Source: Catajapyx aquilonaris
Taxonomy: Eukaryota
Reading direction: 5' to 3'
Assembly: GCA_000934665.2 (NCBI GenBank)
Contig: JYFJ02003221.1
Location: 1 to 45,074 of the forward strand
Length of the DNA: 45,074 nucleotides
Made by a program: the position numbers and the translations under genes. The notes beneath the pieces are model-generated. The model ran no database searches and was not told the origin of the DNA. It saw only the letters and a program-made list of their open reading frames with translations. Shown piece after piece: positions 1,840 through 43,915 of this stretch (its first letter is position 1; every line of letters begins with the position of its first letter).

Positions 1840-2164
1840 TTTTTTTAAACTATACCCCGTTCTCGGACCTTCTGCCCTTATTGGGGGAGTGGGATACCAC
1901 CATTTGTGGAACCATACACTGGATGTGTTTAGTTGTTCCAAGGGTAAGTAGGAGGGGATGTGCAAAGTGCAGGTGCAATGTCGTATATTGGTCATTTTTT
2001 GAACTCCCCCGGGTGGATTAGTCTAGCGGAAATTTCCACCGGAGACGAAGCCAGAGATGGCCCAACTCTGCACGAGATGAAGGGGGGAACCCCGGGCTGG
2101 GATCGAACCCGGGACCTTAACATCCGCGGGCGCGTGCGTTACCGCTGCACCACTCCGCCTCCCC
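1840..2164 (-). mobile_element. tRNA-derived SINE, type A, in intron 1
   Basis: Minus strand has an A box (TGGTGCAGCGGTAA) and B box (GGTTCGATCCC); body homologous to copies at 5108 and 32529; poly-A tail; 16-bp TSD 1824-1839 / 2165-2180 with 2 mismatches. Confidence 0.9.
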
Positions 2165-2253
2165 CCAAGAAAGTGATGTTCCTCTTGTTAACTGTTGGTT
2201 CGTTGGTGTCGGCACTATAATGGCAAGTGCGATTATGCCAGGCTTGTCTTGTG

Positions 2254-2557
2254 GGAAGGAGTAGGTCCTTTGGACACGCGAAAGGCGGGAGAGGGTGAGT
2301 GGTGGCTGGGGGCAGCTTGGCTGTGTCGCAAAGTCAAGAATGCGAGTATTGATTTTTATTTTATTTTGGCTGTACCAACCTAACCTAACCTAACCTTCAT
2401 TCCTTGCGGATACAGACCTTTCTTCAGCCGATACAGACCTATCTTCAGCGGATACACGCCTATCCTTTACTTTATCCTTGCCTTTGAGACATAGCCATTG
2501 CCCCCAGCCGCCACTCACCCTCCCACCTTTCGCGTATCCAAAGGACCTAATCCAACC
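2254..2557. mobile_element. Long-TIR MITE (Mutator-like ends) with a central (TAACC)n tract
   Basis: About 85-bp inverted arms (GGAGTAGGTCCTTTGGACACGCGAAAGG... / ...CCTTTCGCGTATCCAAAGGACCTAATCC); 8-bp flanks GTCTTGTG / GTCTTGTC; AACCTAACCTAACCTAACC at about 2377-2395. Confidence 0.7.
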
Positions 2558-2826
2558 GTCTTGTCGAGGTTGATCCTCTGAATCAACGTATGGTTGCCTA
2601 CAATGCGCGGTTGTAAATGATGCCAAGTTAGCTACACATTAATAATTGTGACCATACACGGTCATCCGCACAAGGTACTGCGCTGGTTCCGTACAAGATC
2701 ATTGTGCAGGATGCTCATTTACAAACTTACGAGTAATAATCCTAATTGTTTTCAGCTCTCTCCAGGTTTCTTTTACGAAGGTGATGCACGCATGAGATGA
2801 GTCGACAGGAGCAATTGTGATAACTG

Positions 2827-3160
2827 GGGGAGGTGGGTGGCCGAGATGGTAACGTCTCGGCTTGCTGAGTGAAAGGTCCCAGGTTCGATCCCCGCCTGAG
2901 AGTTCACTTTCACCTGCGTCGGGAGGGTCTCTGACCTGCACCAAGGAGGTGTCTGGCAACCTAACCTCCTGGCGAACAGCACATGCCCCCTTTTCAGACA
3001 ATGCACTTGCACCCATGTTCCCTCCCTAAAAATCCCTATCCTTACCCAATGTCCTTGTTTCCCTGCACAGGAGTGAAGATAAATCAGAAAATTGATAGAA
3101 AATGTTGGTGTACCATCCCCCTTTAGAACCCGTAACGGTCATCACGGGGTACAACAAAAT
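2827..3160 (+). mobile_element. tRNA-derived SINE, type C
   Basis: Head TGGCCGAGATGGTAA...GGTTCGATCCCC; body closely matches 43565-43915; tail CCCC...ATCACGGGGTAC plus A-rich end. Confidence 0.88.
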
Positions 3161-3327
3161 AATATATATATTTTTATAACTGTCATTTTGTTAATTTTGC
3201 ATCTAGGTTATTTTCTGCCCAGTTCTTTTGTGAACTAATGAATTATAGTGTAAATGTGTTCTAATGCTGTTACATGCACTAGAAATAGTGAAATGCTAGT
3301 GGTTCGCTTTAAATCGCCGGTAGTATA

Positions 3328-3877
3328 CAGGGTGTTTGTTACTAGTCCAGCCGTCGCGCCGTCAGCGTATTTCGTGGCCCAAACCAAGTCTGAAATGTAT
3401 GGGGAGAAATGTCCAGGGACCAACCTGAAACGAGGTAGACGACCAGAAACATTGGCCTACCCCTAGACACAGGCGGAAACACACACGACGCCTCTTAGTA
3501 GGGGCAATCTCATGGCAGGTGGACCCTCGTTCTTCCAGTGGTTGCCTAGGGAGCAGGATATGAGCCTGATAATTATCAGGCTCGTATCCTGCTGATTATA
3601 ATCATGGTCGATAATTTTTTTCTCAAGATCGACAAGTGATTATCAGGCCCATATCCTGCTCCCTAGGCAACCGCTGTGAATGTCATCTGGACCGTCTGCC
3701 AGGAAATCTCCCTACTAAGAGGCGTCGCATGTGTTTCCGCCTGTGTCGAGGGGTAGGCCAATGTTCAAGGTCGTCTACCTCGTTACAGACATTTCTCCCC
3801 ATACATTTCAGACTTGGTTTGGGCCAAGAAATACGCTGACGGCGCGACGGCTGGCTGGACTAGTAACAAACACCCTA
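3328..3877. mobile_element. Tc1/mariner-type palindromic MITE
   Basis: TA|CAGGGTGTTTGTTACTAGTCCAGCC ... GGACTAGTAACAAACACCCTA|TA; inverted arms of about 250 bp. Confidence 0.85.
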
Positions 3878-4049: not shown

Positions 4050-4321
4050 TTTTTTGTTACCCCGTGATAGAGCTCGTGGCCCTCTTAGGGGGGAAGGGGA
4101 AGTTCCCAAGGGAGGGCGCCGTGCGATAGCCATTTCTGACATTCTTTAACACCAGGCCTTTTCTCCTGGCCCCGAGCAGAGAAGGGAGTGCAATTCTGCT
4201 CCGGCATGTCGGGTGAAAAGCGGAAAAAGACCCGGCCAAGCAGAGGTGACGGGGACGGGATTTGAACCCCGGCCTCCCGCTTGGCTGGCCAGCGGCGTAA
4301 CCGCTAGACCACCATGCCGCC
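4050..4321 (-). mobile_element. tRNA-derived SINE, type B
   Basis: Homologous to 10463-10744; 14-bp TSD CAACATGCAGTTTT (4036-4049 / 4322-4335); poly-A tail; ends about 50 bp upstream of the exon 2 acceptor. Confidence 0.9.
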
Positions 4322-4372
4322 CAACATGCAGTTTTCACCACGACTAAAAGCATGTCCTTCCGATCCCTGCAG

Positions 4373-4570: not shown

Positions 4571-4973
4571 GTGAGTATTTTCGTCATAAATATTTCTGCC
4601 TGGAGAATATATTGTTATGGCTTTTAGGTTTACATACAGTGAAACCTGTGCTTCAGTGTCGCAGTATCAGTACCGGTACATTGTTTTAACATTATTTTGA
4701 ATAAGTTCCAACTGACGTCTTAACCCGTTGCAACAGTCAAATGACGGGAAGTGCGTTTGCATGGCAATGGCATAAATGAGGCATTATTACTCTACATAAA
4801 ATAGCGAATTTTTGTATTTTACTTAATTTTCCCGAATGATAGTGAACACTAAGCAATTTTTTCGAGTTAGACTAGCAGTGTCCAACCTTTTCAGGCCTCC
4901 ATACCCCTTTGAAGATCCCCTGTCAGGATGAACTGTCGATTTATATTTTCCTTTTTTTGTTTCATTAGCAATA

Positions 4974-5447
4974 CAGGGTGGACCAACTTCAAGTGTCGTT
5001 TTATAACGGCTATTAATAGAAGCGCTTTACGATTGACGTAGCAGCGACGTGTAAAATGTCCCACTTCGGCTCCATCGAAAATATTAGCTGCCAATATTAG
5101 CGTACATAGGGGAGACGGAGTGGTGCTGCGGTAACGTATGCGCCCACGGATGTTAAGGTCCCGGGTTCAATCCCAGCCCGGGGACACCCCCTTCATCTCG
5201 TGCAGAGTTCATTGGGTCACCTCTGGCTTCGTCTCGGGTGGTATTTCCTACAGACTTAACCACCCGGGGGAGTTCACTAAAAATTGCCACATAAAGACAT
5301 TGCACTGCACCTTGCACATCCCCTCCTGTCATCCTGCTCGTCGGCCCGGGCGCTTCAATAATAATTAGGTTCCAAATATGTACATCGTACAAATAAAGGT
5401 CCGTGCTATATGCCGAGAAGGCCAAGCACTACCCGGATATTATTATT

Positions 5448-5528
<81 letters not shown>

Positions 5529-5833
5529 GTTATTATTATATTAGCGTACATGTAATGAACCTGCTGCAACGAGTGCAACCACATGCGGCACCAATGCCAA
5601 TCCGGCAGTCCGCAAAGAAGGCATTTCACCCAGGCGCGCACCTCAGGTCATGTGTGCACCTCCTTTTTTCCAGGTCAACCCAGCAGCAGGGTTGATTACA
5701 TGTGTGCTGCTATTGGCAGCTAATATTTTCGATGGCGCCGAAGTGGGACATTTTACACGTCGCTGCTACGTCATCGCAAAATCACTGCTATTAATCGCCG
5801 TTATAAAACGACACTTGAAGTTGGTCCACCCTG
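4974..5833. mobile_element. Tc1/mariner-type MITE (copy 1), interrupted by a SINE
   Basis: TA|CAGGGTGGACCAACTTCAAGTGTCG...CGACACTTGAAGTTGGTCCACCCTG|TA; TIRs of about 120 bp; second copy at 11150-11543. Confidence 0.9.
5108..5537 (+). mobile_element. tRNA-derived SINE, type A, with (TAT)n(CAT)n(TAT)n tail
   Basis: A and B boxes; 14-bp TSD ATATTAGCGTACAT (5094-5107 / 5538-5551); microsatellite tail at about 5439-5537. Confidence 0.9.
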
Positions 5834-6090
5834 TATATTGAACCGTTCTTCACACCTTCATTCCTTACTCAAAAGCCCAAATCCGTATCAGCAGTCAACA
5901 TTTTCCTTTGTACAAACCACTTACGAGCTGTGCCATGTCCAATATTGCCCGATGTATTTAGGCCCAAAACATTGACAAAATCCAAAGTAAGACTTATGTC
6001 CAGGGGTACCTTGCTCCGCACCCCTGGTTGCGAACCACTGAGTTAGACCGTGTTTATCACTAGTAATATCTATCTTCCCCCTCTCCACAG

Positions 6091-6393
6091 ATCATAGATG
6101 ACCAAGACCTGCGCCGCCACTTCCGAATTTCCACCAGACACCTGAGAACCACCATTAAGCCTCTACTTTGCATGATGCCCCTTCGCCTCACCAACGGATG
6201 GAACAGGATCCAGTTGGACCTAGAGAACTTGACTCGCCGTGCATTCGGTACCAGATACACACGGACCCTGCGAATGCAGATTCACGCCAACTGCCGAATC
6301 CGCCTCGTGTACTTCGCAGACAGGATCTACACGGACGAGGAGTTGCCTGAGAATTTCAAGGTCTTCTTGCCTGAGACGCAGCCTGCTAAGTAA
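6091..6393 (+). CDS. CFAP20: CFAP20/BUG22-like protein, coding exon 3 (IIDDQDLRRHFR...GWNRIQ...TRRAFGT...QIHANCRIRLVYFADR...ELPENFKVFLPETQPAK*)
   Basis: Polypyrimidine tract plus CACAG acceptor at 6090; contains the diagnostic QIHANCRIR.VYF motif; TAA at 6391-6393. The spliced ORF is 198 aa with no frameshift. Confidence 0.93.
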   Translation: MIDDQDLRRHFRISTRHLRTTIKPLLCMMPLRLTNGWNRIQLDLENLTRRAFGTRYTRTLRMQIHANCRIRLVYFADRIYTDEELPENFKVFLPETQPAK

Positions 6394-7617: not shown

Positions 7618-7645
7618 TTAATGCCACATGGGGAATAGTATGAAC

Positions 7646-7924
7646 CGGCGCTGGTGGTCTGGTCTCTGGTGGTTAGCGCGCTCGCCTCTAGACCCAAAGT
7701 TGTGGGTTCGAATCCGGCCGAGGACTTTTCTCCGGGTGGTAGAAAAGCGAGAGTGCGCCTTCCTTCGGAGGAGAAGTAAAGCCGTCGGTCCCGTGTGCTT
7801 GTGACATTGCGCGAGTGCACGTTAAAGATCCCTAGAGTGGCAAAATTTCCAGGAGGAGGACCACCCCCTGGCGTCAGTGTTGAGCCTTGCGGCAGATAAA
7901 GGCCGAAGTTAAGCCACACTGATC
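7646..7924 (+). mobile_element. tRNA-derived SINE with a Meta/Ruka-like core
   Basis: B box GGTTCGAATCC; core CCCGTGTGCT...GTGCACGTTAAAGATCCC...AAATTTCC resembles, from recall, the tick Ruka / MetaSINE domain; 9-bp TSD AGTATGAAC (7637-7645 / 7925-7933). Confidence 0.8.
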
Positions 7925-9963: not shown

Positions 9964-10148
9964 CGGTGGCCGAGATGGTAACGTCTCGACTTGCTGAGTG
10001 AAAAGTCCCCGGTTCGATCCCCGCCTGGGAGTTCCCTTGCACCGTCTTGCACCGGATATTGAAGTAGAAAAGCGACGTAGAAAACTGATGGTGGTGTGCC
10101 ACCCCCCCCCCTATACAACCCGTAAGGGTCATCACGGGGTAAACAAAA
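9964..10148 (+). mobile_element. Short (internally deleted) type C SINE
   Basis: Same head as 2827 and 43565, lacks most of the body, keeps the GATGGTGG...CCAC CCCC...ATCACGGGGTAA tail. Confidence 0.85.
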
Positions 10149-10462: not shown

Positions 10463-10744
10463 GGGGAGGCATGGTGGTCTAGTGGTTACGCTACGCCACT
10501 GGCCAGTCAAGCGGGAGGCAGGGTTCAAATCCCGTCCCCGTCACCTCTGCTTGGCCGGGTCTTTTTCCGCTTTTCACCCTACATGCCGGGCAGAATTGCA
10601 CTCCCTACTCTGCCCAAGGCCAGGAGAAAAGGTCTGGTGTATTTCACAGAGTCAGAAATGACTAAAAATTACAACGCCCTCCCTTGGGAACCTCCCCTTC
10701 CCCCCTAAGAGGGCTCCGCCCTATCACGGGGTATTACAAAAAAA
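10463..10744 (+). mobile_element. tRNA-derived SINE, type B
   Basis: Homologous to 4050-4321; TSD AAGTCCAAGTTCA / AAGTCGAAGTTCA (10450-10462 / 10745-10757). Confidence 0.9.
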
Positions 10745-11149
10745 AAGTCGAAGTTCATGTTGGCGAGTACGGAAAATTTTCTCATGTACAGAAAGGCTCA
10801 ATTTCCTGATCTCCGTCTACCAGACGTACTGTGTCAGAGTTACGGCGACCCGACCATAAAGGCCCCGCGCCAATGTATCTCATACTACCAGACGTACCGA
10901 AAGAAGTGTTTGACTCGATTGTGACAATTGAATCCTTGAATCTAAGAGTAGGCAAATGTCCATAACAGAGATTTCTTTTGCAACAAAACAACAAGGAACA
11001 TTGTAAGTGTGATAGTGACAGTTATTTTTAAGTTTTGAACACCTTTCGTTGCTTATAGAGTTATGTGCTTTAAAAATGCCAAACTTCTCTAACTCGAATC
11101 TTCTGTAACTCGAAGTTTTTTTCAGGTCCCATGTATGTTCGACTTAATA

Positions 11150-11543: not shown

Positions 11544-13683
11544 TATAGAAGTTTTACTGTCATTATTAAAAAAAATATTATACAATGAACGGAGAGAAAC
11601 GTGAGGAGCAAAGAGGAGAGGTCGAAGAAAAGAGTCTCAGAGCTAGATATAAAACAGGAAATACTGCAGCATTTTAAATGCCACCTGAGTGGAAGGAGTT
11701 GGTGAAATTTTCAAAATGTTCCGTCCGCACAATAATGTACTCCACAGAGGTAGTTGAGAGGAGAGAGTATATAGCGTCGGAAGTTGGTCGACATGACGAC
11801 CTTTCTCATTTCCGTGACGACTGTACTTGGGAGTAGATCTGTTGGAAAAGGGCTACTCTCGGGGGGTTCAAAGGTGACACTAAGAAGTGAGCCTTGTTTC
11901 CGGGACAAATTAGAACAGGGACCCTAAGTCCCTCGTGTTGCGATCCCACACACGTTTCCAGTTAACTTCGGAGGCATTAGCACTTCGTCACTGTACTCAA
12001 GGATTAATTTAGGCTATTAGTTCAAACAATATTTCTGAACTCCTTATGCAAGAAGGATAACAGATATCATATTCCAGTCATTTATTTTTAACGAGTGTGC
12101 GGAAATCAAGTGATGATGAGCAGTTATGATAGATTCACCAAATGAACTCGGGAAAAATCCATATCTTCCTGTGATTTATTCAGGATGCTTAAAGCATGAT
12201 AGTAGGTTTAAGCTGATTATGATTGTTCACCAAAATATTAATTAGAGCAAAAAAATATATGATATCAACAGAAAACACACTGTGTTGTGGCTTGTCAAAA
12301 TTGCGAATTGATAGGTCATTTTTGTCAGGTCACACTCATGCGAATAATTATTATTATTGTATACAGTGTGTTCCGAGAGAAATGTCGTTAATGGTAATAA
12401 TTAATAGTTTCTAATATAGTGTCTATAAAATACCGGTACGGTAGGACCTAATACTTTTCGTGATCATTAAAAATGCCTAAGTTACAATGTATTAGCTGCT
12501 ACTATGAGGTTGAGTGGGTACATTCCTTAACTGATGAAGAAAGGCGTATACATTAAAATATGGGTCTAACTTTTGACCACAGATGCCAGTGGGTCAAAAG
12601 AGCTAGCTAGAAATATCTAATGTTAGAAAAGTTTTTACAAATCATAACAGCAAATAAATGCTTTTATTCAAACTAATAGTAGTAACAGCTAATGTTTTTC
12701 ATAACTGGTAGCAGGATATGCTCGAAATTAAGTAGGCTACCGTCACAAATAATAAATAAATTACGGCCAAAAAATCGTTAAGCAGCAAGGATATCATTTT
12801 AATTGGAACATATTTAATAGATGTGCTGAAATACGGTGTATTTTCAAATAGAACAACTTTATATCGATATACAGGAATGGGTAATAGCTCATAGGCATAA
12901 TTATTTCTGCTTTTCAAGACCTCAGCGATTAGAGAAAAGTAGAGGAAATGGAGGAGATGAAAGTCGTCAAATGAGGCTCCCGGACCCCCCCAATTGGTTT
13001 TTCCTGTATAACTTCTTAGATGTTAAAGTTACACTTAATTGCTCGATGTCAAAAATATTCTCTCATTAGTTAAGTTCACCTAAAAATTGGCTATAACAAA
13101 ATCCACGTAAATGTTCCAAGTCAATGGCATTTTTTAATTTAGTTAAACTCTGCAAAAAATTATTCTCCAGAAAAAGGGCTCCAAATTCGGACCGCCTCGC
13201 CTTTTCCTTCAAATGCAGACCTCCAAATGCAAACAATTTGTCAGGGGAAAATGAAAAGAAACTTAAGTCATGCATTGGAATAATTTATAAATTTAAAAAT
13301 ATATAATATAGTGAACATAAATAACATCAAGAACACCGAAGCAGTAGTGGTGGAGTGGATATGGTGTCCGACTGCTAATCGGGAGGTCCTGGGTTCGAAT
13401 CCCGGAGGCCAGCGATCCTGACCTTGGTTTTCTTTGGTTTCCCAAGGTCGCCCTAGGAAAAATTTCCGGAATCGTACCGTAACATAGGCCACAGCCTCTT
13501 CCTTCCTTTCCCTGCTCTGGAGGAGGTGCGGTGTCAGTGGGGAATATCTGACCCGCATCAAGGGATAATCTATGGCGAACGGGCCCCCTGAGGGACTGCA
13601 CATGACCCCTACTTTGATGACATTGCACATGCACCAGTGTCCCCCCTCCTTATCCCTACCCTGTCCCTGCACGATATAGTTAA

Positions 13684-16102
13684 GGTGCTAATAAGGGACA
13701 AATTTGACCCAAACTTTGCATTTTGTGACAAAAGTATGAAACTCGGTACACTTGTTCTTTGGACACCTCTGATCATATCTGGACGTGGAGCCACAATGAC
13801 CCACCCCGGTGGTGGTCCATTTCGCAGGGTTTCCATAACTACCAGATGCAGCATCATTTAGGACCTTGTATTGGGTGACAAAAACATGAAACTCGGTACG
13901 GTAGTTCTTTGAACACATCTCAACATATCTGGACGTGGGGTCACGGTGGGTGACCCCTGGTGGCCTCGTCAGAGGTCACTATCGCGGAGTTGCCAAATCG
14001 AACATGTGTTGCACACCTTTACATGAATAAGGGCCTGGCATTCGGTGATAAAACACTGATAAAACATGAAACTCGCCCCAATTGGTCTTTGGACACTACT
14101 GAACATGTCTGGAAGTGAGGCCACTATGGATGACCCCGCTGGGGGTCACTCGCAGGGTTGCCAGATCTAATGGGCTCTCTAAGTAAACTATGTGAATAGG
14201 GAGCTTGCATTCGGTGGCAAAGAAGTGAACCTCGGTACAATATAGTTTTTTGCACACTTCCGAACATATCTGGACGTGGGGCCACGATGGCCCACCCCGG
14301 TGGAGGGCACTATCATGGTGTTGCCAAATGTAACAGACTGTACAACATGCGTTTATGTTTGAATAGGGGACTTGCATTTGGTGACAAAGACGTGAAACTT
14401 AGTAGAATATTGTTCTTTGGACACTTCCGAACATGTGTCTGGACGTGGAGCCACAATGACCCATCCCGATGGAGGGAACTATCGCGGCGTTTCCATATCT
14501 GACAGACTGTGCAATATGCGTTTATATTTTGATAGGGAGCTTGCATTCGGTGACAAAGCCATAAAACTAGGTACATTAGTTCTTTTGACACTTCCGAACA
14601 TATCTGGACGTGGAGCCACGATGACCCACCGAATGCAAGCTCATTATTCAAATATAAACACATGTTGCACATTCTGTTAGATATGGCAACCCTGCGATAG
14701 TGCCCTCCCTCGGATTGGGTCATCGTGGCTCCACGTCCAGATATGTTCGGAAGTGTGCAAAGAACTATATTGTACCGAGTTTCACGTCCTTGCCACCGAA
14801 TGCAAGCTCCCTATTGACATGGTTTACTTAGAGAGCCCATTAGATCTGGCAACTATGCGAGTGACCCCCAGCGGGGTCATCCATAGTGGCCTCACTTCCA
14901 GACATGTTCAGTAGTGTCCAAACCCCAAAGACCAATTGGGGCGAGTTTCATGTTTTATCAGTGTTTTATCACCGAATTCATGTAAAGGTGCATTCACATA
15001 TCCGCGATCTCGTGCCCAGCGACCGATTCGGTGCCCCGTCGCTGTCGCCGGAGCGTTCACGTATCCACGACGCGGTGCCCCCAGCGACGGAGTTCCCGTC
15101 CAGCGACCGTTTTGGTGCCCGTCGCCAGGATCTGCTAGATCCAGATACCTGCGACGGCAGACACACGGTCGCTGGCGACAAAAGTCACGTGTCTTGTGCC
15201 AGGCCTTGCATCATCCTTGCATGGGCCGGCTTGGGCTCTGCAGTTGGGTCATTGGACCGCCATCTTCGATATAGGCTCAATTATTTTAAAAACTTAAATT
15301 ATTTTATAATTACAAACGTCCATGGAGTTGGCCTCTGACCATATCAGATGGCCGGTTGCAAATTTGTTTCGGAAATATGCCTTCCAAGCCTGTACTTTGA
15401 GGGATAAGGCCGGAGGCCAGCGGAGGCCAGCGGAGGCCAGCGGAGCCGCCATGTTTTTTTCGGGCATGAGATCGTGGCGACAGCTTACGTGAATGCTGTC
15501 ACGACGCTCGGGCCCGAAACAGCACTGGGACAATGCCCCAGCAGCTGGGCGACACCATGCCCGCGACGTCGCTCGGGCACGGGGTCGTGGTCGCAGTCGC
15601 AATCGCGGATATGTGAATGCACCTTTAAGGTGTGAAACACATGTTCGATTTGGCAACTCCGCGATAGTGACCCCTGGCACCAGGGGTCACCCACCGTGAC
15701 CCCACGTCCAGATATGTTGAGATGTGTTCAAAGACTACCGTACCGAGTTCCACGTTTTTATCACCGAATGCAAGTTCCCAATTTACATGATCTTCGCAGA
15801 GATGTATGTTTGGTCCGTTAGATCTGGTAACCCTGCAAGTGACCCACAGCGGGGTCAGTCATCATGGCCCCACATCCAGACATGTTCAGAAGTGTCCAAA
15901 GACCAATTGTGGCGAGTTTCATGTTTTTGTCACCCAATACAAGGTCCTAAAGGATGCTGCATCTGGTAGTTATTGCAACCCTGCGAAATGGACCACCACC
16001 GGGGTGGGTCATCGTGGCTCTACGTCCAGATATGATCAGAAGTGTCCAAAGAACAAATGTACCGAGTTTCATACTTTTGTCACAAAATGAAAGTTCAACC
16101 CC
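13684..16102. mobile_element. Foldback element made of 150-180 bp tandem units; TTAA-flanked with GG...CC ends (Kolobok-like by termini only)
   Basis: Six forward units (TGAAACTC-like anchors at about 13737, 13887, 14067, 14226, 14393, 14562) and at least five inverted units (about 14781, 14947, 15749, 15918, 16068); centre at about 14630; TTAA at 13680-13683 and 16103-16106. Confidence 0.8.
14986..15624. mobile_element. PIF/Harbinger MITE inserted in the right arm of the foldback
   Basis: 23-bp TIR AGGTGCATTCACATATCCGCGAT; flanks TAA / TTA; the empty site CATGTAAAGGTGTG can be read from the left arm at about 14012-14025. Confidence 0.85.
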
Positions 16103-17294
16103 TTAACACCCGGACTAATAGTGGTAATCCACTCCCCTAAGAGAACCTAGGGCTCTAGGACGGGGTATATCTTAAAAAATAACATCAAGAACGACATTTT
16201 TTTAAAAACCAAAACATTGAAGACTCGCATTGCAAATTGAAAAGTAGTCCCCGACCTTTACTTTCTATGTCACAGGACAAGGAGAGGATGAGGCCCAAAA
16301 GGAACCGATAGGTCATGGGGTCGTGATAAATCAAGCGCAGTGGACTTAATGATCATGTAACGGCAATTTGCCGCATTTAATGCCCAACAAATCATAATAC
16401 ACACATCCCTGACCCTGCATCTGCTTTTCAGCACACTATGACATATGCTTCGAATCCCTTTTCCTTTCCCTTGTTGCATCCAAAACATCAATCAAATAAT
16501 ACCTCCTCACTACCAATGAATTAACCCACACATTGCTCCTTTAATCCTTGCAGCAATAACCTCCAAAATAAAGAATAACTGATGATGCAATAATGGGGGT
16601 CGGAGGGGGGGGGTCGGTCGTATGATAAAAACCCACTGAACATCACACTTCAAAGTGCGGTTCAACATTTCCCAGAAAGAAAGAATGTCTGATGATGAAA
16701 CCTTGGGAAGAATAGGACATGCAACTCACTGAACCTCACACAACATGACGTGGGTTCAACCTGCCCCTCAAATCCCTCAACAATGAACCCGGAACCCCGG
16801 TTCAACAACACCATCAGCAACGGAGACTCCCAAACCCAATATAACACTGAATACTAACCAGTATCAGCAGTTCCTCTGACACCCACACATCGTGAAGCTC
16901 AAAAAGGGAGTGAGTCCCACAACTGTGGCTGTTCAGGCAAGGTCAGATAACTCGGTCTGCGTGGAGGGAAGGCAATGGCCCCATTGCCTGATCGTCGCAT
17001 TCAACTCTGACATTCTACTTAGCCGCCATCGTTTTCCATCATTTATCACTTAAAATTAACGAAGATAAGGCTACACTTTATAGTTTGAGGAAAAGGGAAT
17101 CTTCCGCCCCAGGTTGATGCCAAATGAGGTCTGAGGCTAAGCCTAATCCTAAGGCTCGGTTCCGAGCGCGGTTCATATGGTTCATATATAGAGCCGCGGG
17201 GGACACTAAGCGCGATCTAGTAGCTGTGATCTCCCACAGCTCTACTAGATCGCTTCTATGTTAGAGGCGAAACACTATGACCAAGTCAGCTATC

Positions 17295-17640
17295 GGACAC
17301 TTCCCCTACAATCTTATCTTATTGCCTGCCAGTCCCCTGCCGGGGCGTTTTGCATGATGTGCTCACCTGAGAGCGCCATGAGACCTTTCACTGCACTGTT
17401 ATGTGGCGACCCTACCGGACTACGCTGAACTTTAGAGGTACAAAAGGGAAGCGCTACATGTGGGCCCAACATGGTCGCCGGCGACCATGTTGGGTCCCCC
17501 AATGTAGCGCATCCCTTTTGTACCTATAAAGTTCAGCGTAGTCCGATAGGATCGCCACATAATAGCGCAATATAAAAGCTGTCACATGGTGCTCTCAAGT
17601 GAGCACCTCATGCAAAACGCCCCGGCAGGAGGGAGTGTCC
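17295..17640. repeat. Palindromic MITE-like element with no spacer
   Basis: Perfect 30-bp central palindrome CCCAACATGGTCGCC|GGCGACCATGTTGGG (17465-17494); arms extend about 150 bp with mismatches. Confidence 0.8.
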
Positions 17641-18650: not shown

Positions 18651-18950
18651 GAATATAATAGAATAGAATATGTTTATTTCCCTCTCGCCCTTGGGCATCT
18701 CAGGGAAGATATCTCTTGCACTTTGTTACCTTTACATAAAACTCAAACCACTTTATTTAGTATTTACAATATCATATCACAAAACATAATATTCACCACT
18801 GCTAATGAAATTTCCGAAGAAATAATGGATGTAATACGACATTGTAGAGCCTCGTAACTGTCACCGTCGCCTTTGATCCTAAATATGCTGCCTATGGTAA
18901 ACTAAAAATTCAGGTGTGTACATTCCAGTAGGTTGGCAATGTGTTGCAAG
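18651..18950 (-). mobile_element. Decayed LINE 3' end
   Basis: Minus-strand tail TTCCCTGAGATGCCCAAGGGCGAGAGGGAA-ATAAA plus (ATTCT)n; weak remnant HIANLLEC upstream. Confidence 0.5.
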
Positions 18951-19147
18951 TGAATTAGGTTTTGCCCGGTAAGAAATCGAGTTTACGATGGATTTTAAAA
19001 TGGAATGCATATTATTCCTCAGCATCCACTACTGCATTATATGCATATGTTTCCCCGAATTTAACTGCTCTAATTAACGTTTTTGTTCTAGACACTGAAT
19101 TGACTAGGAAAGTAGCTTCATATCCACCTTAATAGGTCAATGTTGGC

Positions 19148-19622
19148 ACCGAAGCAGTACTGGTGGAGTGGATATGGTGTCCGACTGCTAATCGGGAGGT
19201 CCTGGGTTCTAGTCCCGGAGGCCGACGATCCTGATATTGGTTTTCTGTGGTTTTCCATGGTCGCCCCAGGAAAATTCCGGGATCGTACAGTAAAATAGGC
19301 CACAGCCACTTCCTTCCTTTCCCTGCCCTGGAGGAGGTGCTGTGTCTGTGGGGAAATTCTGCCCCGCGATTTGACGCGTGTCTCAAGCTTGGCCCCCAGA
19401 GGGACTGCACACGGCCCCCACCAAAAGACAATGCAATGCACCACTATTCCTCCCTCTTTATCCCTTCCCTGTCCCCCGCACAGGAGAGAAAGAAAAAAAC
19501 ACGCGGAAGTAATTTCGCATAGAAAACGGAGGCGATCTCCCCCCCCCCCCCNTACATTGACCACTAGGTCTCAAGGGGGTACCCAAATAAATAAATAAAT
19601 AAATAAGTAAATAAATAAATAA
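19148..19622 (+). mobile_element. tRNA-derived SINE, type D
   Basis: Homologous to 13335-13683; (TAAA)n tail; 17-bp TSD AATAGG(T/C)CAATGTTGGC (19131-19147 / 19623-19639). Confidence 0.9.
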
Positions 19623-20115: not shown

Positions 20116-20189
20116 TTCTAACACGGGAATCGAACCCGGGCCTCCTGGATGAAAGCCAGGTATCCTATAGCCACTAGACCAATATTGGA
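20116..20189 (-). tRNA. tRNA-Glu(TTC)-like gene, probably a pseudogene
   Basis: TCCAATATTGGTCTAGTGGCTATAGGATACCTGGCTTTCATCCAGGAGGCCCGGGTTCGATTCCCGTGTTAGAA; intact anticodon stem CCTGG/CCAGG with loop CT-TTC-AT, A and B boxes, TTTT just downstream; acceptor and T stems are imperfect. Confidence 0.75.
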
Positions 20190-29317: not shown

Positions 29318-30341
29318 TCTACTATCCGTTTATTTAATATAGAGCCCTGTGTTTAACTCTAAATAACTCCCAGGCAAATTATTCTAAAAAATAAAGTAAT
29401 ATATCGTTCAGAAGCTAGTTTAAATCTACGTTACATATATGCGAGTTGTTTTCCTATCGTCAGTCTCTAATTTTTTATCGTAAAAATAAGGTGGAAAAGT
29501 GTCATTTTTTGACTAGTTGCCGAGGTTGCACCGGAAAGTGAATTTTTTATGACACTTTCAGGAGGCAAAAAAAAATCCCCCTGTGAACCCTGGATAGTGC
29601 ACATCTTTTTCTATCTAATGATATATTTGAAACATTGAGATCGCCATTTCTGTAATCATAATTAAGTTAATTGCACACCTCTGTTATCTCGGCCGTTTAT
29701 AATCCGAATTACTTCGCGAATGTATCGACGGCAAGCCAGAAATGTGCGTGATAAGATTGCATTGTGCTCTATTACACTAAAAAATTTTAAAGTATTGTTT
29801 TAGTAGGTTTAATAAAAAAGGACCCAGCCCGCTTTCTGGCGGGAATAGACGGCGATACTTTTAAATACGTTTAAAATTTTTAGTGTAATAGAGTACTGTG
29901 TAATATTATCACGCACATTTCTGGCTTGCCGTCGATACATTCCCGAAGTAATTCGGATTATAAACGGCCGAGATAACAGAGGTGTGCAATTAACTTAATT
30001 ATGATTACAGAAATGGCGATCTCAATGTTTCAAATATATCATTAGATAGAAAAAGATGTGCACTATCCAGGGTTCACAGGGGGATTTTTTTGGCCTCCTG
30101 AAAGTGTCATAAAAAATTCACTTTGCGGTGCAACATCGGCAAGTAGTCAAAAAATGACACTTTTCCGCCTTCTTTTTACGATAAAAAATTATAGACTGAC
30201 GATAGGAAAACAACTCGCATATATGTAACGTAGATTTAAACTAGCTTTTGAAAAATATATTACTTTATTTTTTAGAATAATTTGCCTGGGAGTTATTTAG
30301 AGTCAAACACAGGGCTCTATATTAAATAAACGGATAGTAGA
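29318..30341. mobile_element. About 1-kb near-perfect inverted repeat (young foldback or MITE)
   Basis: Arms of about 470 bp starting TCTACTATCCGTTTATTTAATATAGAGCCC, with only scattered mismatches; spacer of about 80 bp; no clear TSD. Confidence 0.85.
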
Positions 30342-31504
30342 GGATTTTTCTATTTGTAAATTTCATTGACAACTCCTAAATGCTATATACCGCGGACCAT
30401 TTGTTTGATTAATTATTGGTCTAAAGTCTCTACACATTATTTAATAACGGTCGAAGGTGGTGCATAGGGATCATAGGGGGCGGAATGTACTGTACCATTC
30501 TTAATTGGTAAAATATTTGAAACAATTTACATTGCTGGAAAACCCATACTTCAGGAATTTATGAGCAAAGGTCTTTAAGTACTTTGATCCTGTATGGTTT
30601 TGGGCACCTTCTATAGAATAAGGACGACACATCCCGGCAGCTTTATTCCAAGTGCATATCATTTCCACTGGAACTAAACTCGCTTGTTTCCACTAGTCCC
30701 TTTAAACCTGGTGCCCCCGTCTATCTACTAATTAATGGGCACCAGAGGAGGAGTAGAGTGGGCAATAATCTGAATGAGATCTGTGGTATCGGAGCCGGGG
30801 ACTAAGATGTTCAGTATAAAAGCCGGAGTGTCGGAGGAAGGGCCGAGAAAACCACGTGCGACACCTCATTACGCGTTGGCATAATGTCACTGGGGGCACC
30901 CACCCCGTTCTACTCACGACACCCCCTGGCACAGGTGGGAAAGCTTCAACATCTGCCCATAATGATGCCGTTTGAAAGGAGATAAGGGAGTCATTTGGTC
31001 TCCTAAGTTGCCCCTAATGAGCCTAGAAATCATTTTGTAAGGGAGTCCTAATCCCCCAAGCACACTTGGCCTGTGCTACTGGGGTTTCCAAAGATACTGT
31101 CCACTGGATTAATAGTCTGTTGGACTCTGTGGCCCTCCCGTAGCTAAAACCCATAACGATGCACACCACTTCCAAGCAAATCCGTAGCCGACACAGGCTT
31201 TAGACAAGTCATTCATGAGAATGGCAAATTATGCTCTTATTCGTTCATTACTATTCATTGTAGTATTTCATAACAGTTCAATTTTTATATTCGATGGCTC
31301 CTTCTTCCCCACAACCATCACTTAGCTAGGCAATTCCATAAACTATACCGGTATGGGTGGTGACTGAAATGAACATGGTCCGCGTGTTTTCCTTTTATTT
31401 GGGTATTTGGGATACATTTGGGATATTACTGTATTGTATATATATGAGGCATTCCAAGTCAAGCGGGCCACCTTTCCGACAAATCTTTGAGAACCTTGAC
31501 CAAA

Positions 31505-32215
31505 TTTTTTTTATTATTATTTTTATTTATTTTTATTTATTACCTCTTGCTCAGGGCTGTAGCCCTGTTTCGGGGGACACACATTTCCAGTTTCCATATT
31601 ACAAAATTATAAAATTCCTTTTATCCCTATTTCATTCTTAGTTTATTCATTAACTACACTGGCCTTTTGTTCACTTTGTAGTAAAAAAAGAGAAAAAAGA
31701 AGAAAAAAGAAAAGAAAAGAAGAAAAGAGGACAGGAAATTTGAGTATTGGGGAACATCTCATACGAGTTACTTTTACGGGACTACAAAAATTGCTTTAGT
31801 ATGCAGAAAATTTAATTCGTTTGTTAACATTCTGAAAGAACTTAAATAAGGCAAAAATGTGTTTTTTTGTGATGTCATGGTAGAGCAGTTGGTAATGTGA
31901 GGGTGGATATCTGGGAAGAATGTATAGGTGGTTGGTTCTCGGGGTCGAAAAGTATCTGCATTCGTAAATTAAGTGATATGCTGTCAGTGGTTCCTTCATG
32001 TTACACCATTCACAAAAATCTTCATTAAAAGCATAATTGAATCTGCTTTCAAACGTACATACTTTGAGTTGTTTCTTAAATTTGCTATCATTCTTAACTG
32101 TATAATTGGGAGACCACATGTTAAATATTCTTGCCCAAAATTTAATGACATGTACTACTCATCAACTTATGCAGGAAGCCAAATTATTATACCTCTGCGC
32201 TGCGTAGTTGCGTAA
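31505..32215 (-). mobile_element. LINE 3' fragment (ORF2 C-terminal CCHC knuckle, 3' UTR and tail)
   Basis: QEYLTCGLPIIQLRMIANLRNNSK / CEWCNMKEPLTAYHLIYEC (one frameshift between them); tail TCCCCCGAAACAGGGCTACAGCCCTGAGCAAGAGGTAA plus (TAAA)n. Confidence 0.85.
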
Positions 32216-32528
32216 CTACAGGGTGGGCAAGTTGCTATTTTTCACTCATTTTACTCTGTCAGGGCTTTGAATGGAGGCCCGTAACTTCTGAACCTGATTT
32301 GGACAGGTCTGGAAACGCTCTTTACTACTATCACATCAGGAATGTTGAAAAATGAAAATTTCGATTTCAAAATGGCGACCAAATTTTGATTTTGAGTTAG
32401 CTAAAATTTTGATTTTAAGTTCGCTCAAATTTGGACATTTTTGATATTTTAAAAATGTCTCTTAAAATGAAGCTTGAACCACTCCGCCTCCCCTCGGAAA
32501 TATCAGTAGGATCTACTGATATTTCCGA

Positions 32529-32858
32529 GGGGAGGCGGAGTGGTGCTACGGTAACGTATGCGCCCACGGATGTTAAGGTCCCGAGTTCGATCCCAGCCCC
32601 GGGACACCCCCTTCATCTCGTGCAGAGTTCAGGGTCACCTCTGGCTTCGTCTCGGGTGGTATTTCCACAGACTAAACCACCCGGGGGAGTTCACTAAAAA
32701 TGGCCACAGCGTCAGATGCACTTCACCTTGCACATCCCCTCCTGTCATCCTGCCCGTGGGCCCGGGCTTTAATTAAACAGGCACCATGTACTGAACGACT
32801 CAAAATACAATAAAGGTCCATGCGATATATCCCGGAAGGGGTGAAAGCATTACCCACA

Positions 32859-32924
<66 letters not shown>
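32529..32924 (+). mobile_element. tRNA-derived SINE, type A, with (ATT)n tail
   Basis: Close match to 5108-5537; 15-bp TSD TACTGATATTT(C/A)CGA (32514-32528 / 32925-32939). Confidence 0.9.
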
Positions 32925-33280: not shown

Positions 33281-33482
33281 GTGTTACTGAAGGTAATATT
33301 AGCGATGGACTGCTTTAAATGGGTCGTGGAAAACAAAGGTTGTTTCTTCCCCGTCATGAGGCAAGCCGTCAAAAAAAAATGCCAAGATAGTTATGAATCA
33401 AGTTGTGTTTAACAGGACTTCAAGGACACCCCTAAATTCATTCATCTTGATAAAACACATTGTTTATATTCACACGCATGAT

Positions 33483-34091
33483 ACGTTGACATTCCTATCA
33501 GGGTCGGACAATGCTTTTGAAAGAAATGAACTAACGGACCTTCAGCTCCGTGCACTACCCCAGAAGTTCGCAGATCATCAGACTGAACTGAGTATGTTAA
33601 AGTTAGCACATTCTTTCCGGTATGCTTATTACTGCGACCTGCAAGGTCCACCCCCGGCCAGTTACCTAAAGTTATCAACACCGATTAAACTTCAGAGAAT
33701 GATGGCCAATCTCCGCAATGCCTCACCCAAGTTGATAATTGAGGGAAAACAATTGCAATTCACATCAGAGGACATTTGCACGTGGTGCAACGACCTCGTA
33801 CCGTTTACAATGCATCACTTGTTGTTTATTTGCCCGTTTTTCACCTCTTCGAGAAAAAGTTTCCTTTCAAATTTATGTTCTTTTCCTCCGGACAGACAAC
33901 ATTGGATTCTACACGAAACACCGAAAGATCGAATGTATAGTTTATAAATTTTTTTTGCTAATGTGCTTAAGAGGATGGACCTATATATGTGAATAATCTC
34001 TGGCCTTTCTCATATGCAGGCAGAGTTGTCCCCCTATAGGGGCGCTGCCCCATAACGGGGTTACATAAATAAAATAAATAAAATAAATAAA
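33483..34091 (+). mobile_element. 5'-truncated LINE (RTEX-like ORF2 C-terminus) with an open frame to the stop at 33947
   Basis: SYLKLSTPIKLQRMMANLRNASPKLIIEGK...CTWCNDLVPFTMHHLLFIC (C-x2-C-x9-H-x4-C); tail CCCCTATAGGGGCGCTGCCCCATAACGGGGTTA plus (TAAAA)n; perfect 17-bp TSD ATATTCACACGCATGAT (33466-33482 / 34092-34108). Clade assignment is from recall. Confidence 0.88.
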
Positions 34092-35619: not shown

Positions 35620-36113
35620 TTTATTTTGTTTTTTGTTTTACCCCATTGGAGGGAACGAAGCCCTTTTAGGAGGGTGGATTACCACCATCTATGCCAATTT
35701 TAACTTTTTTTTTCTTCAGATTCCGTGCATGGACATTAAGGAAGTATAGTAAGGATGGGGGAATTGGGAGAGGTCACAGGTGCAAGTGCAATGTCTGAAT
35801 AGGGTCATGTGCAGTCCCCCAAGAGGCCGGATGCCAAGACGCCTCCTTAGACCCACTGACGCAGGCGAAAGGTCAAGGGGGTAATCACTCGACTGAAAAG
35901 TGTACACTGGAGTACCAAATTCAAGGAGTAACCAAGGGGTAATAAAGAGTGAGGTACCTGAGGAGTACCAGGGAGTACCACTCGCAGGTGTACACCGGAG
36001 CACCGAAGTGATTACCCCCTTGCGAAAGGTTACTCCCGGATGGGGATTGGAACCCGGGACCTTTCGCACAGCAAGCCGAGACGTTACCATCTCGGCCACA
36101 GCACCTTCCCCTT
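35620..36113 (-). mobile_element. tRNA-derived SINE, type E (type C-like head, different body with GGTACTC repeats)
   Basis: Head GTGGCCGAGATGGTAACGTCTCGGCTTGCTG; shared TGCAC core; structured tail; 14-bp TSD AAACAGGGTCATTT (35606-35619 / 36114-36127). Confidence 0.85.
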
Positions 36114-39969: not shown

Positions 39970-40012
39970 AGAGGATCCCCTAAGAGGCCCAAGGGGCCTA
40001 TCACGGGGTATC
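39970..40012 (+). mobile_element. Isolated LINE/SINE 3' tail
   Basis: CCCCTAAGAGGCCCAAGGGGCCTATCACGGGGTA has the same architecture as the type B and C SINE tails; no head is recognisable upstream. Confidence 0.6.
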
Positions 40013-42499
40013 CATTATTATAATAAAAACAACGGTAACATCAGTCAAAGCTTAGAGTATATGACGGAGAAAATTTGTCAAATGCCATGTACATTTAGAA
40101 ATAATATTTGTGCCAATTTTAGGACAACGTGTTGAGCAGAAAAGGTACGTGCTTCACTTGAGCAATACCAACCATGACAACTGAGTTGCAAATGGGTGAA
40201 ATTGTGTTAATCGTATAATAGGAATAGCTGAAAAGAGAACTATATTTTAGTGTAACACACTTGTCTAAGTGCCAGTGGAGGAATTAAGACCTAGTCCAAT
40301 GTATGTATTCCATAAGCATCTCGCTGCATCCTTGCGGAGCAATCTCGTAGAGCGAAGAAAGCGTGCGAGATAGAAAAATAAATGTCTGACCCAACTTGAC
40401 TCCTCTACCACTCCCATTTCCTCTATCCGAGGAAAATTGCGGCTGCCTCGCATCAGCTGTAATGTTGCTATTGTGGCAGAATTTTATCTGTAAGCAGCCC
40501 AGCCTCGTAGGCCTAAAAAGTGCTGGAGTAATAATCTAAACTCTGATAATAATGAAACTTGGGTCCCTGGTGTGAAATAATAAAGTCCTCCTCTTTATGT
40601 TCGTGCAGGAGCCGCAGTAAATGCTTTTCTCCAAGAGTGCAAAAGGGCCTCCAGTTTGCGCACTTCTCTCAACGTATAAAAACGGGGAAGGAAGTTATAA
40701 TAATATGCATAATAACATATCTTGATACAATATATTGGAAGCTAGAATGTTGTTGTGACTGATGGGTTAGTATCAAGATAGCTGTAGGAGTGTAGGGTAA
40801 GGAGTTGGGGAAAGGTTGTCCCAAGAAATTAATGGCTGTGAGCGCGAGGCAGCAGCTGATTATACTGTATAGGCTAATAATTACAGTGAGTAGGGAGCAA
40901 CGCATGATGGGAAACTGTAATCAGATGGATGCATGATACAATGCAGGGAGGTAGCAAGTAAGGGTATTCCGATGGGCAGATACAAATGTGTCACATTTTC
41001 AACTGGGTGCTTTTTTCAGCGAAGTTGATATTATTAAAACTGCAGCTTTATGATTCATTTAAATGCCCTCAAGCTTATCTCCTCTAAATAATTTGATCAT
41101 GTTAGTGGCCTGGAACTGGGGGCGCCATAGCAATTCAGCCAAGGGAATACGACAGGGGAACTCCGCCGCCTTTATCATGTCACGTCGAACTTGTCACTTC
41201 CCCCCAATTCTTTGGCAAAGTGGGGGGAATGTAATGTGGGAAGGGCGGGAGTCGAGGGGAAAATTCCGAATTTACATATGCCTCTTACCGCCAATGGTCA
41301 GCATGACGACAGATCATGTTGTCAATATTAAGTTATGTCGTAAGTAATATTGTTAGGAAAATATTAATATCTTTGAATATTTGTTCGACCTATCCCGCAA
41401 GGCGTACTAAATGTTCAGAACGAACTGATTAACTTAGCGCGAAGTAGGGAGACTCTGGTTTACCTGGCCCGACCTATACCCATAACATATGCGACGACCC
41501 CGTGACTGAATGAGCATTTACATAATTATCTCCGCGGTATACAGTAGGCCTACATACTGTACATAAATTCTATGCTGAAGCAATCTCTCTGACAATATTA
41601 TCGTGTATTAAATATTTATGGGTGTGGGCGGAACACCTTCGTTTTGGTTGCGACAACTCTTATCTTTACATTGGTTTAGTTCGTGTCCTAACGACGTTTC
41701 AAGTGCAGGCTGGCAGTAGCCAAGGCGAAACGCAAAGAGGGCCGGGCAAATGACGTCCCAAACAGCCTGAGAGAACATGCGACAATTAGTGTAACACAAG
41801 CGACCATTTTGTACGCACTCGCTTTCAACTGGCTGAAATTGTTCAGCGGCAATCCTACTCTCCGGGCCTTGGAAAACCAGGTTACACAGTGTACAGTTTC
41901 AAGTGGTACAGGGAACAAGTCGCATCTGTGCTGTACTTAGCAGCTAAATGATTGTTACCAGATTATTATCATCCAACAGCAAAGGCTGCTACTGCATCCT
42001 CTCCTTTTGACTCTGGTAATGCAACAAGTATTGAATGATCTAAAAGCCTCCAACTCATTTTCTAAATTGGCTCCAACTTTTGCCACTCTCGCCGCAAAAT
42101 GAAATTTGCAATACATCCATGGAAAAGAGACCAAGACATTATCCAGAAGGAAGTCTTCCCCCGTCGTAAAAATTATTAGGCTCGCAGTAAAACTTTTCTT
42201 GCCGGCACCTGCATGGGCCATTGATCCCACGGGACTAAGAAGGATTTGGGATGACTTTATGGATCCTGAGATGCGAGAGGGAGAGAAGAGGAGGGGAGGA
42301 TGTGGATTACATCATCATGGGGATGGTTCCGCGGGGGATGCCAATGCTTGGGGACACCCCCACACACTTACAGTGTATTATTGCTCTGGTTATACACCAT
42401 GAAGGGACCCTCTTATTACTAGCGTCACTAAAAATAACTAATATTAACCTCAGTGCTACTCATTATACTGATTGGGTAGGCCATCAGACAGGAGAACTG

Positions 42500-42660
42500 C
42501 TGCCGTCAGATGTAAGAAGACCGTAACTCAAAAACTAATGAAAGTCTCATGCATGCCCTGAACTAATTCCTCCTGACTCAGAATGGATTAGTGCAGGGCG
42601 TTCATGCGACTTTCACCCTTACTAGTTTTTGAGTTACGGTCTTCTTACATCTGACGGCAG
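42500..42660. repeat. 161-bp hairpin / MITE remnant
   Basis: CTGCCGTCAGATGTAAGAAGACCGTAACTCAAAAACTA is perfectly inverted at 42623-42660; the inner arms are imperfect. Confidence 0.8.
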
Positions 42661-43564
42661 ATACTGTCCTGCTCAGTTTTATCTGGTCAAAATTTCAGAG
42701 TTTTCCTGAATGTTTCCTGCATTCAAATGCCATCCTAAGCTCTGGTAGAGTGTATTGACTATCTAGTAAAGGTTATAATCTATGTATATTGACCAAATTG
42801 GCATTTTTGGTGGGGGGCCTTCCGCCAAAACTGTTTAACATTTCATGTGCAGGTGAATTACTTGGAAACTTGCTGCTTGAAGTAGTATAAATATTATATT
42901 GCTCATAGTTCAGGATTGCACATCCTCATTGATGACCCCTGAACTGGATATATCTTCGAGGGTCATTTTGGGCGTCAACTAGTTCCCCATGAAAAATGGA
43001 ACCAATCCGTTGATCCCTACGGCAACACTAATCTATGCAACGGCTAATAGATAGGCCGGATATAACCTAATTGTTAGGCGAGAGCATATCAAATTAATCG
43101 GGCTAAATGTGAAGCAACGTGATTGGCGCATTTTTGGATTCGACGAGAAGCAATGTAGGAAGTCGCGGTGGCATCGACCACGCACGTATCTCCGACATGC
43201 TGGAAGGGACCTGAACCGTAGGTCTTGTCCACGTCACACTAAACTTATTATTCTCCCCTCCGCTAAAGTTAGCTGACTCAGTCACATCCCAGATTCTCCT
43301 CCCTTTTTGCCATTATGGTCACACTTTGATATAGGAAAACACGGCGCGACAGTATTCTGAAACAACGAGGTGGGCTTCATGTTCCTAAGTAATATAATAT
43401 ATAGCAGTGGCCTAATGCCGTTTTATAGAAATTACACATTCTGATAAGACAGATGATAGAAGGACAAAAATTCCATTCGTATTTCTCAGTATTGGTCTCA
43501 GAAATGTGTTCAAGTAGCTATATTAAATGCAATCTCTACGTAAGTGTTACAAATTATTGCATTT

Positions 43565-43915
43565 GGGGGAGGTGTAGTTGGCCGAGATGGTAGCGTCTCG
43601 GCTTGCTGAGTGGAAGGCCCCAGGTTCGATCCCCGTCTGGGGTACTTTCCTTTCACCTGCGTCAGGAGGGTCTCTGACCTGCACCAAGGAGGTGTCTGGC
43701 AACCTAACCTCCTGGGGAACAGAACATGACCCGTTTACCGACATTGCACTTGCACCTATGTTCCATCCCCAAAAATCCCTATCCTTACCCCATGTCCTTT
43801 CATCCTTGCACCGCACCGGTGAGCGAATAAAAATAGTACACAGTTACTAGAAAACTGATGGTGGTGTTCCACGCCCCTAAAAAGGCTCCGCCTTATCACG
43901 GGGTAACTTAAAATT
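43565..43915 (+). mobile_element. tRNA-derived SINE, type C
   Basis: Homologous to 2827-3160; TSD TTATTGCATTT (43554-43564 / 43916-43926). Confidence 0.9.

Follow-up and report, generated by a model that had tools for sequence, protein, structure and literature searches.

Why do tRNA-headed short interspersed elements (SINEs) of five types end in the same fold as the long interspersed elements (LINEs) that live beside them? The question is raised by contig JYFJ02003221.1 of Catajapyx aquilonaris, a 45,074-nucleotide stretch of repeat-rich animal DNA (hereafter the window), in which 13 elements close with an outer stem (P1), an A-rich internal loop and an inner hairpin (P2), followed by an A-rich repeat. 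Ten of these elements are of SINE type and three are LINE 3' ends. Our conclusion is that an RTEX-like clade of LINEs probably uses the motif as a 3' RNA handle in target-primed reverse transcription, and that SINEs have captured it repeatedly. The argument draws on the position of the motif, its covariation, its descent together with the second open reading frame (ORF2) of the LINEs, its exact capture by one SINE subfamily, the target-site duplications and a motif in the ORF2 linker.

On the forward strand the G-run of the motif begins at 3146, 10136, 10728, 16162, 19576, 34057, 40005 and 43900; on the reverse strand it begins at 1858, 4063, 31546 and 35644, and the remaining motif, at 18683, has the variant AGGGAA. 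The motif at 31546 (-) reads GAGGTA and contains a single stem mismatch. Minimum-energy folds of the last 50 nt, with an ambiguous N at 19576 taken as A, predict both the outer and the inner stem in all 13 elements, the outer stem being broken at 31546. The pattern CCCC-N18-30-RGGGTW gave 35 overlapping matches at 17 sites in the window, ten of them motif elements, against a shuffled mean of 4.3, and a pattern blind to P2 gave 6262 matches across the whole genome, with overlaps counted twice, where the reversed control gave 10. A pattern match at 24761 (-) that lacked family context was excluded from the count. A sequence-only reading of the window had proposed some 13 elements with a shared 3' motif, all of which could be located, together with eight inner hairpins, each found in its place, and six (G)TGG-N4-CCA(C) hairpins preceding the motif, which are present at 1858, 3146, 10136, 16162, 35644 and 43900. 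It had also assigned TCACGGGGTA to most elements, where it occurs in 6 of 13, and had counted the element at ~18680 among the SINEs, which is in fact the third, 5'-truncated LINE end. Nor did the preceding hairpin find support as part of the LINE signal, as had been supposed: it occurs in 9 of 34 LINE families against about six in controls (5.8 and 6.1 in two controls, with nine reached by 100 and 132 of 1000, respectively), and it was rejected as a LINE feature. In the SINEs its stem hardly varies, and its role there is unproven.

The LINE side was sampled by searching the genome assembly (286 Mb, 20,583 contigs) with the ORF2 end at 33360-33944 of the window. The 120 LINE loci retrieved, including two duplicates, fall into 49 clusters at 85% nucleotide identity, and the tail was found directly before the terminal repeat in 108 of the 120 loci and 46 of the 49 clusters (anchors picked by eye). 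Of the remaining loci, 11 are interrupted, deleted or cut by the end of a contig; the last, L108, had the look of a LINE tail but proved to be a SINE A insertion and was dropped. A candidate tail-less family (L035 and L078) was likewise discarded, as both loci cluster with the tail-bearing L074 and are apparently interrupted within the 3' untranslated region (UTR). The signal had been ascribed to a single LINE family, a view that the sample overturns: the three LINE ends in the window represent three families, and 46 ORF2 clusters each have their own version of the tail. Full or long ORF2s are mutually 34-46% identical, and the tails in general track the ORF2 tree, with distant P1 types on separate branches. 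The upstream 3' UTRs vary from ~40 to 350 nt among families that keep the fold and its distance from the end, and the terminal repeats include (AAAT)n, (ATT)n, (ATCT)n, (GACTT)n and (ACTT)n. An ACAC-type motif was seen at the start of three full LINE copies (L021, L022 and L024).

The inner hairpin varies in sequence and keeps its pairing, as the sequence-only reading had held, and the covariation of P2 appears in each of three tests. In a MAFFT alignment of 54 tails that was not fitted to structure, P2 contained 28 double-change cells against 14.0 in shuffles (reached by 0 of 500); in a model-fitted alignment it contained 46 against 14.9, and every slide scored lower; and in an alignment-free test based on the anchors only, 114 of 160 were paired against 93.9 ± 4.7. 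With RIBOSUM scoring on gap-trimmed columns, RNAalifold recovered P1 and P2 from each of the two alignments. When the 46 families are judged by their first member, 33 satisfy a strict nested descriptor (36 if the best member is taken); the controls gave 22% for shuffled sequences and 42 of 184 for anchors placed upstream. P1 showed no two-sided change in either alignment because the distant families are misaligned there; read family by family, both of its strands, which lie ~25 nt apart, have changed, to CGTC/GACG, CGCC/GGCG, CCTG/CAGG, TTTCC/GGAAA and CACGCC/GGTGTG, and the complements of these variants are present in 4 of 258 windows taken from other families. This covariation of P1 is confined to distant LINE families. 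The earlier claim that structure rather than sequence is conserved thus stands for P2 and fails as a general rule, because P1 of the SINEs stays CCCC/GGGG, the A residues of the internal loop are conserved and a SINE subfamily copies the module of one LINE family exactly. The SINE modules examined, from a harvest that targeted this form, keep the C-run and G-run, and the A two bases upstream of the G-run is kept in 100 of 104 SINE and 55 of 65 LINE modules. Figures from swapping stem arms are circular for cognate pairs and were not used.

That the five SINE types share the LINE terminal motif, another claim of the sequence-only reading, was borne out by a covariance model built from LINE tails only, which places nine of the ten SINE-type tails among its top 11 hits in the window; it misses 19576, and ranks 18683 low. 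Types A-D yielded 1589-3504 first-look candidates each. Among copies harvested by head and body, the module is carried by 57 of 64 type A elements, 22 of 33 of type B, 33 of 46 of type C, 24 of 48 of type D and 13 of 17 of the fifth type, V, in a sample biased by the tails that formed part of the queries; copies lacking the module are mutated, truncated or carry a second class of tail. Target-site duplications of at least 8 nt flank 95 of 149 SINE copies and 3 of 149 controls. The SINE heads contain box-like motifs, identified by eye against the box consensus, and were not called as tRNA by ARAGORN or Rfam. Capture is evident in the exact module of the L037 LINE family, which was found in 24 SINE A copies and six LINE loci among 30 loci read (of 31 matches). 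Near matches link SINE B with L015 (0.91) and a SINE A subfamily with L038 (0.88). The apical loop is exact in the L037-type capture but differs among members of a LINE family or of a SINE subfamily. A single P2 pair in one group of SINE A is T-A in 55 copies, A-T in 44 and mismatched in one, as counted by eye in 100 of the 234 matches. The most frequent module of SINE A has 78 exact matches, listed without flanks.

Three window copies with SINE heads lack the motif, namely type D at 5108 and 32528, which carry a different tail, and type C at 13334, which is without any tail. The different tail has the form AATAAAGGTCC..., a variable hairpin, ...AAGCAYTACCC and then (ATT)n, and was seen on SINEs of type D and on one or more copies of type A (5108-5450 (+), 32528-32870 (+), L242, L088, L150 and L240); this second class suggests a second LINE partner. 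An apparently full-length LINE (L022:3090-7910; ORF1 and ORF2 open, 5' UTR of ~60 nt, duplication of ~17 bp) sits inside such a tail on a type D SINE. At L293 and L317 a type C head is fused to a type A 3' region, so that body modules also swap between SINE types. Two anecdotes bear on the route of tail capture. At L159:1765-1850 (+) a module of the L001 family stands alone directly behind a SINE B tail, and this hairpin-only LINE insertion is a possible intermediate of capture; at L254 (-), near 749 of the reversed strand, a LINE end begins just upstream of the C-run.

Several results weigh against the interpretation of the motif as a retrotransposition handle. The LINE sample is incomplete, the search having returned 151 matches from 150 scored of 998 candidates. 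The first member of 13 of the 46 families fails the strict descriptor. Many rows of the unfitted MAFFT alignment are out of register, with covariation after a slide of +1 at 0.189 versus 0.175, and the shuffles used as covariation controls ignore relatedness, none being tree-aware. RNAalifold gave no consensus pairs on either alignment, and under default scoring it gave none once the gaps had been removed. Most single tails do not fold at a lower energy than their shuffles (z of ~-2.9 to +1.8), and the support is therefore comparative, not thermodynamic. The 99 paired copies among 100 in the SINE A group represent a few events in master copies rather than 99; these few covarying events suggest all the same that the masters kept pairing. 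Finally, most SINE modules resemble a sampled LINE only loosely: no sampled LINE module scores above 0.77 against the commonest A, C, D and V modules, a level close to that seen between LINE families (median 0.69, maximum 0.87), and this counts against strict family matching. Since the LINE sample is incomplete, the partners of these unmatched modules may be unsampled or extinct.

Some of these points bear on a neutral explanation, according to which the tails are shared by descent only and the paired changes arise from hairpin-templated (quasi-palindrome) mutation and not from selection. The tails are not unusually stable, relatedness inflates the counts of covarying cells, and short palindromes self-correct by template switching, all of which this explanation would accommodate. 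It has difficulty with the persistence of the fold and of its end distance across ORF2s and 3' UTRs as divergent as those described above, and with the joint change of P1 strands that are so far apart, and we regard it as scarcely credible.

The poor match of the commonest SINE modules bears on a different alternative, a widened form of the sequence-only proposal, in which P1, the A-rich loop and some inner hairpin suffice for an RNA to be mobilised by any ORF2 of the CCCC/GGGG subgroup, so that P2 carries no family identity and the SINEs exploit the whole LINE pool. In keeping with such shape-only recognition, SINE A bears at least 13 module types on near-alike bodies (13 clusters on closely similar bodies, two of them probably mis-cut), its most abundant modules and those of other types match no sampled LINE above 0.77, and P2 varies freely in sequence, length and loop with its pairing retained. 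Against it, amplified SINE subfamilies hold exact or near-exact copies of particular LINE modules, tails track the ORF2 tree, and the unmatched modules may derive from the unsampled or extinct LINEs already mentioned. In zebrafish L2, moreover, recognition of the stem is general and that of the loop specific, and elements with swapped stem-loops failed to retrotranspose (PMC4176376). We consider shape-only recognition across the clade unlikely, and prefer a handle that retains some family identity.

To which clade do the LINEs belong? Full copies have an ORF1 of ~290-340 residues and an ORF2 of 1096-1283 residues. In the three full copies scanned, the layout is of two ORFs, with an APE endonuclease, a reverse transcriptase (RT) and a C-terminal CxxC-HxxxxC motif in ORF2, and no hit to RNase H in any of the three. 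The closest named relatives of the LINE protein are from a pseudoscorpion and a springtail (29-39% identity). In a FastTree phylogeny of the RT, 12 resident rows group together (support 90), join the pseudoscorpion and springtail proteins (99) and lie within a group (94) that is separate from DUF6451-bearing RTE-type, RNase H-bearing and CR1/L2-like rows. This wider group is probably RTEX. RTEX, unlike RTE, encodes a full ORF1 protein, and an ORF1 esterase is reported for some of its members (PMC3905857). A microsatellite 3' tail is listed for algal RTEX in a table of PMC3472496, and the tails of the resident LINEs conform to this. No esterase was found in the resident ORF1s, none of the three having a Pfam family above cut-off; Atlas leads pointed to L1-type Transposase_22 or Baculo_FP-like clusters, and a PDB sequence search with ORF1 gave no relevant hit. 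The provisional label RTEX-like, used here instead of RTEX because no ORF1 esterase turned up, fits the tree and the domain layout.

In stringent LINEs it is established that the target is nicked, the tail gripped and synthesis primed on the repeat. By the same scheme, the resident ORF2 protein (ORF2p) would nick the target, grip the two-tier hairpin and prime on the A-rich repeat. P1, a few bases upstream of that repeat, would act with the A-rich loop and P2 as the handle of a large and old RTEX-like clade, each LINE family having inherited its own version of the tail along with its ORF2. The five tRNA-headed SINE types would have repeatedly taken a module of roughly 30 nt that joins the SINE body at the C-run or close to it, perhaps by template switching in the C-run or, alternatively, through very short LINE ends landing in a SINE tail; the SINE master copies would then have held the pairing while the sequence drifted. 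We infer that ORF2p binds the tail and requires it. The likely binding site, by analogy with ZfL2-2, is the linker between the endonuclease and the RT, which contains P/L-W-x18-W in five of five ORF2s. Both tryptophans are invariant and 19 residues apart, the proline is present in four of the five, and a basic, variable stretch follows the tryptophans. The spacing equals that of Pro324, Trp325 and Trp344 in the tail-binding region of ZfL2-2 (PMC4176376), as compared by residue numbers rather than by alignment. Recognition is most likely bipartite, as in zebrafish L2, with P1 and the loop A residues read by the conserved part of the linker and P2 read mostly by shape, with some family preference.

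The fold might instead serve formation or stability of the RNA 3' end, by displaying a polyadenylation signal or blocking an exonuclease, and in many LINE families AATAAA or a near match does lie a few bases past P1. Heads of tRNA type imply RNA polymerase III transcripts, for which a polyadenylation signal is needless. The tRNA-headed SINEs nevertheless keep the fold and covary in it, and shared tails of this kind have been RT signals where tested (PMC4176376), which makes a 3'-end role very improbable. The elements also show hallmarks of a stringent-type LINE-SINE pair: a shared 3' terminal sequence, compensatory stem changes, target-site duplication, a repeat tail and 5' truncation.

Beyond the resident genome, 80 metagenome loci were sampled, ten of which lie in or near the wider clade and have a locatable terminus. 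Seven of these ten distant termini fit the descriptor, against 25 of 116 control sites, and four of the seven (L330, L337, L339 and L340) are convincing by eye; the two-tier fold may be clade-wide among RTEX-like LINEs. It is not unique to that clade, since of ten termini from other clades four satisfy the descriptor too, with 35 of 117 among the controls. Three CR1/L2-like LINEs on metagenome contigs (L357, L358 and L374) were seen to have a layered stem-loop followed by TAAA and a microsatellite. A bolder proposal, possible in our view though decidedly tentative, is that the RTEX-like clade uses one mainly shape-read element with a fixed P1 and A-rich loop and a free P2, that the SINEs are general parasites of dozens of LINE families, sampling interchangeable 30-nt tails through a capture hotspot in the C-run, and that the fold may extend to other lineages. 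If true, such an element would represent a mode of recognition intermediate between 'stringent' and 'relaxed'.

The three LINE ends in the window are all 5'-truncated. One (33483..34091 (+)) comprises the ORF2 C-terminus, which is 94% identical to the full ORF2 of L021, the 3' UTR, the hairpin (34030-34062) and an (AAAAT)n tail, with a 17-bp target-site duplication. The second has its terminal hairpin CAGGGC-taca-GCCCTG at 31541..31576 (-) and its ORF2 end at 31796-32158, and belongs to the family of L101 and L115; the third has its hairpin at 18678..18707 (-), with the outer stem TTCCCT/AGGGAA, and its last ORF2 codons (~18770-18830) resemble family L034. Type A SINEs have terminal hairpins at 3117..3151 (+) (element ~2827-3175; inner stem ACCC/CGGT, with one mismatch), at 10102..10141 (+) (ACCC-gtaa-GGGT, on an internally deleted copy with its head at ~9962) and at 43874..43905 (+) (AAGGC-tcc-GCCTT, element 43566-43915, 12-bp target-site duplication). 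A diverged type A-like SINE (~35620-36113, 14-bp target-site duplication) has its hairpin at 35639..35673 (-), and its nearest LINE family is L018/L042. The hairpins of type B lie at 4058..4093 (-) (element 4050-4322, 14-bp target-site duplication) and at 10700..10733 (+) (AGGGC-tcc-GCCCT, element ~10463-10750), the module of the latter being 91% like that of LINE family L015. Type C is represented by the hairpin GACC-acta-GGTC at 19548..19581 (+) (element ~19145-19630, 11-bp target-site duplication) and type D by a two-tier hairpin at 1853..1887 (-), preceded by GTGG-tatc-CCAC (element ~1840-2165). A 5'-truncated copy of the fifth type, V, ends in AGGCCC-aag-GGGCCT at 39977..40010 (+), and a very short, probably 5'-truncated SINE end has its hairpin at 16134..16167 (+), preceded by GTGG-taat-CCAC.

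Other sequence in the window includes the tail-less type C SINE (13334-13690 (+)), which is followed by a tandem/inverted array at 13716-16096 with units of ~150-170 bp, and two more tRNA-type SINE heads without the motif at 7640-7920 (+) and 20890-21100 (+); the body of the former may resemble those of Deu/Nin-domain SINEs. A short inverted-repeat element (35880-36030) interrupts the A-like SINE, with related sequence at 380-460, and long inverted-repeat elements resembling miniature inverted-repeat transposable elements lie at 3347-3854, 4971-5836, 17392-17569, 20260-20846 and 29305-30354. An exon of a CFA20-domain gene (6067-6390 (+)) and a tRNA-Glu(TTC) gene (20116-20189 (-)) are also present, and tRNA was the sole hit of the Rfam scan.

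The borrowing of a LINE tail by SINEs, covarying shared tails and tail exchange are established from L2, CR1 and plant L1 pairs. The resident tail itself was not described in the full-text literature searched, a search that lay outside the sequences of Repbase, Dfam and SINEBase, subscription papers and most supplements; three short tail motifs gave no hit in the cockroach SINE supplements searched (one PDF excluded). The closest likeness is to zebrafish ZfL2-1 and ZfL2-2 and eel UnaL2 (Hayashi et al. 2014, PMC4176376), which have a terminal stem-loop before a short repeat and a stem that is exchangeable if paired, ZfL2-2 also sharing P-W-x18-W in its linker with the resident ORF2s. In the L2 systems family identity lies in the apical loop and function has been assayed, whereas the resident tails, known from sequence alone, belong to a clade other than L2, have a two-tier fold and vary in the apical loop even within one SINE family. 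In bivalves, CR1-14_CGi is paired with BivaV-SINE2 and BivaCORE-SINE1, and L2-31_ACar with BivaCORE-SINE2 (Nishihara et al. 2016, PMC4824008); there too, one LINE tail with compensatory changes is found on SINEs whose bodies are unrelated, and a template-switch change of tail was proposed. Those pairs have a single LINE per tail, in the CR1 and L2 clades, in contrast to 46 coexisting LINE clusters and many modules per SINE family here. Maize LINE1-1_ZM with ZmSINE2 and ZmSINE3 shows variable stem bases, compensatory changes and conserved flanking bases (Ohshima 2012, PMC3472496; the shared maize L1 tail with compensatory changes also in PMC3747384), but in the plant L1 clade and with one hairpin and a conserved loop. 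Mosaic SINEs, in which one body has different LINE tails and one tail occurs on different bodies, are likewise known (Kojima 2018, PMC5786205; Martelossi et al. 2024, PMC11481361), with exchange that is occasional or between LINE clades where here it is frequent and within one clade; the word RTEX is absent from the main texts of both papers. Ectocarpus RTEX-N1_Ec32 is a non-autonomous element that shares its 3' end with autonomous RTE-X LINEs, but it is from a brown alga and, in the available part of the source (PMC12477816), has no identified tRNA head and no described tail structure. Set beside these systems, the window adds an RTEX-like clade to the LINEs that have tRNA-SINE partners and a defined tail structure. 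It offers a set of ~46 natural combinations of an ORF2 linker with its tail, all from a single genome and placed on the same tree, together with SINE tails that do and do not match a LINE exactly, and the resident pairs thereby allow a direct test of how the specificity of a LINE protein for its RNA tail evolves.

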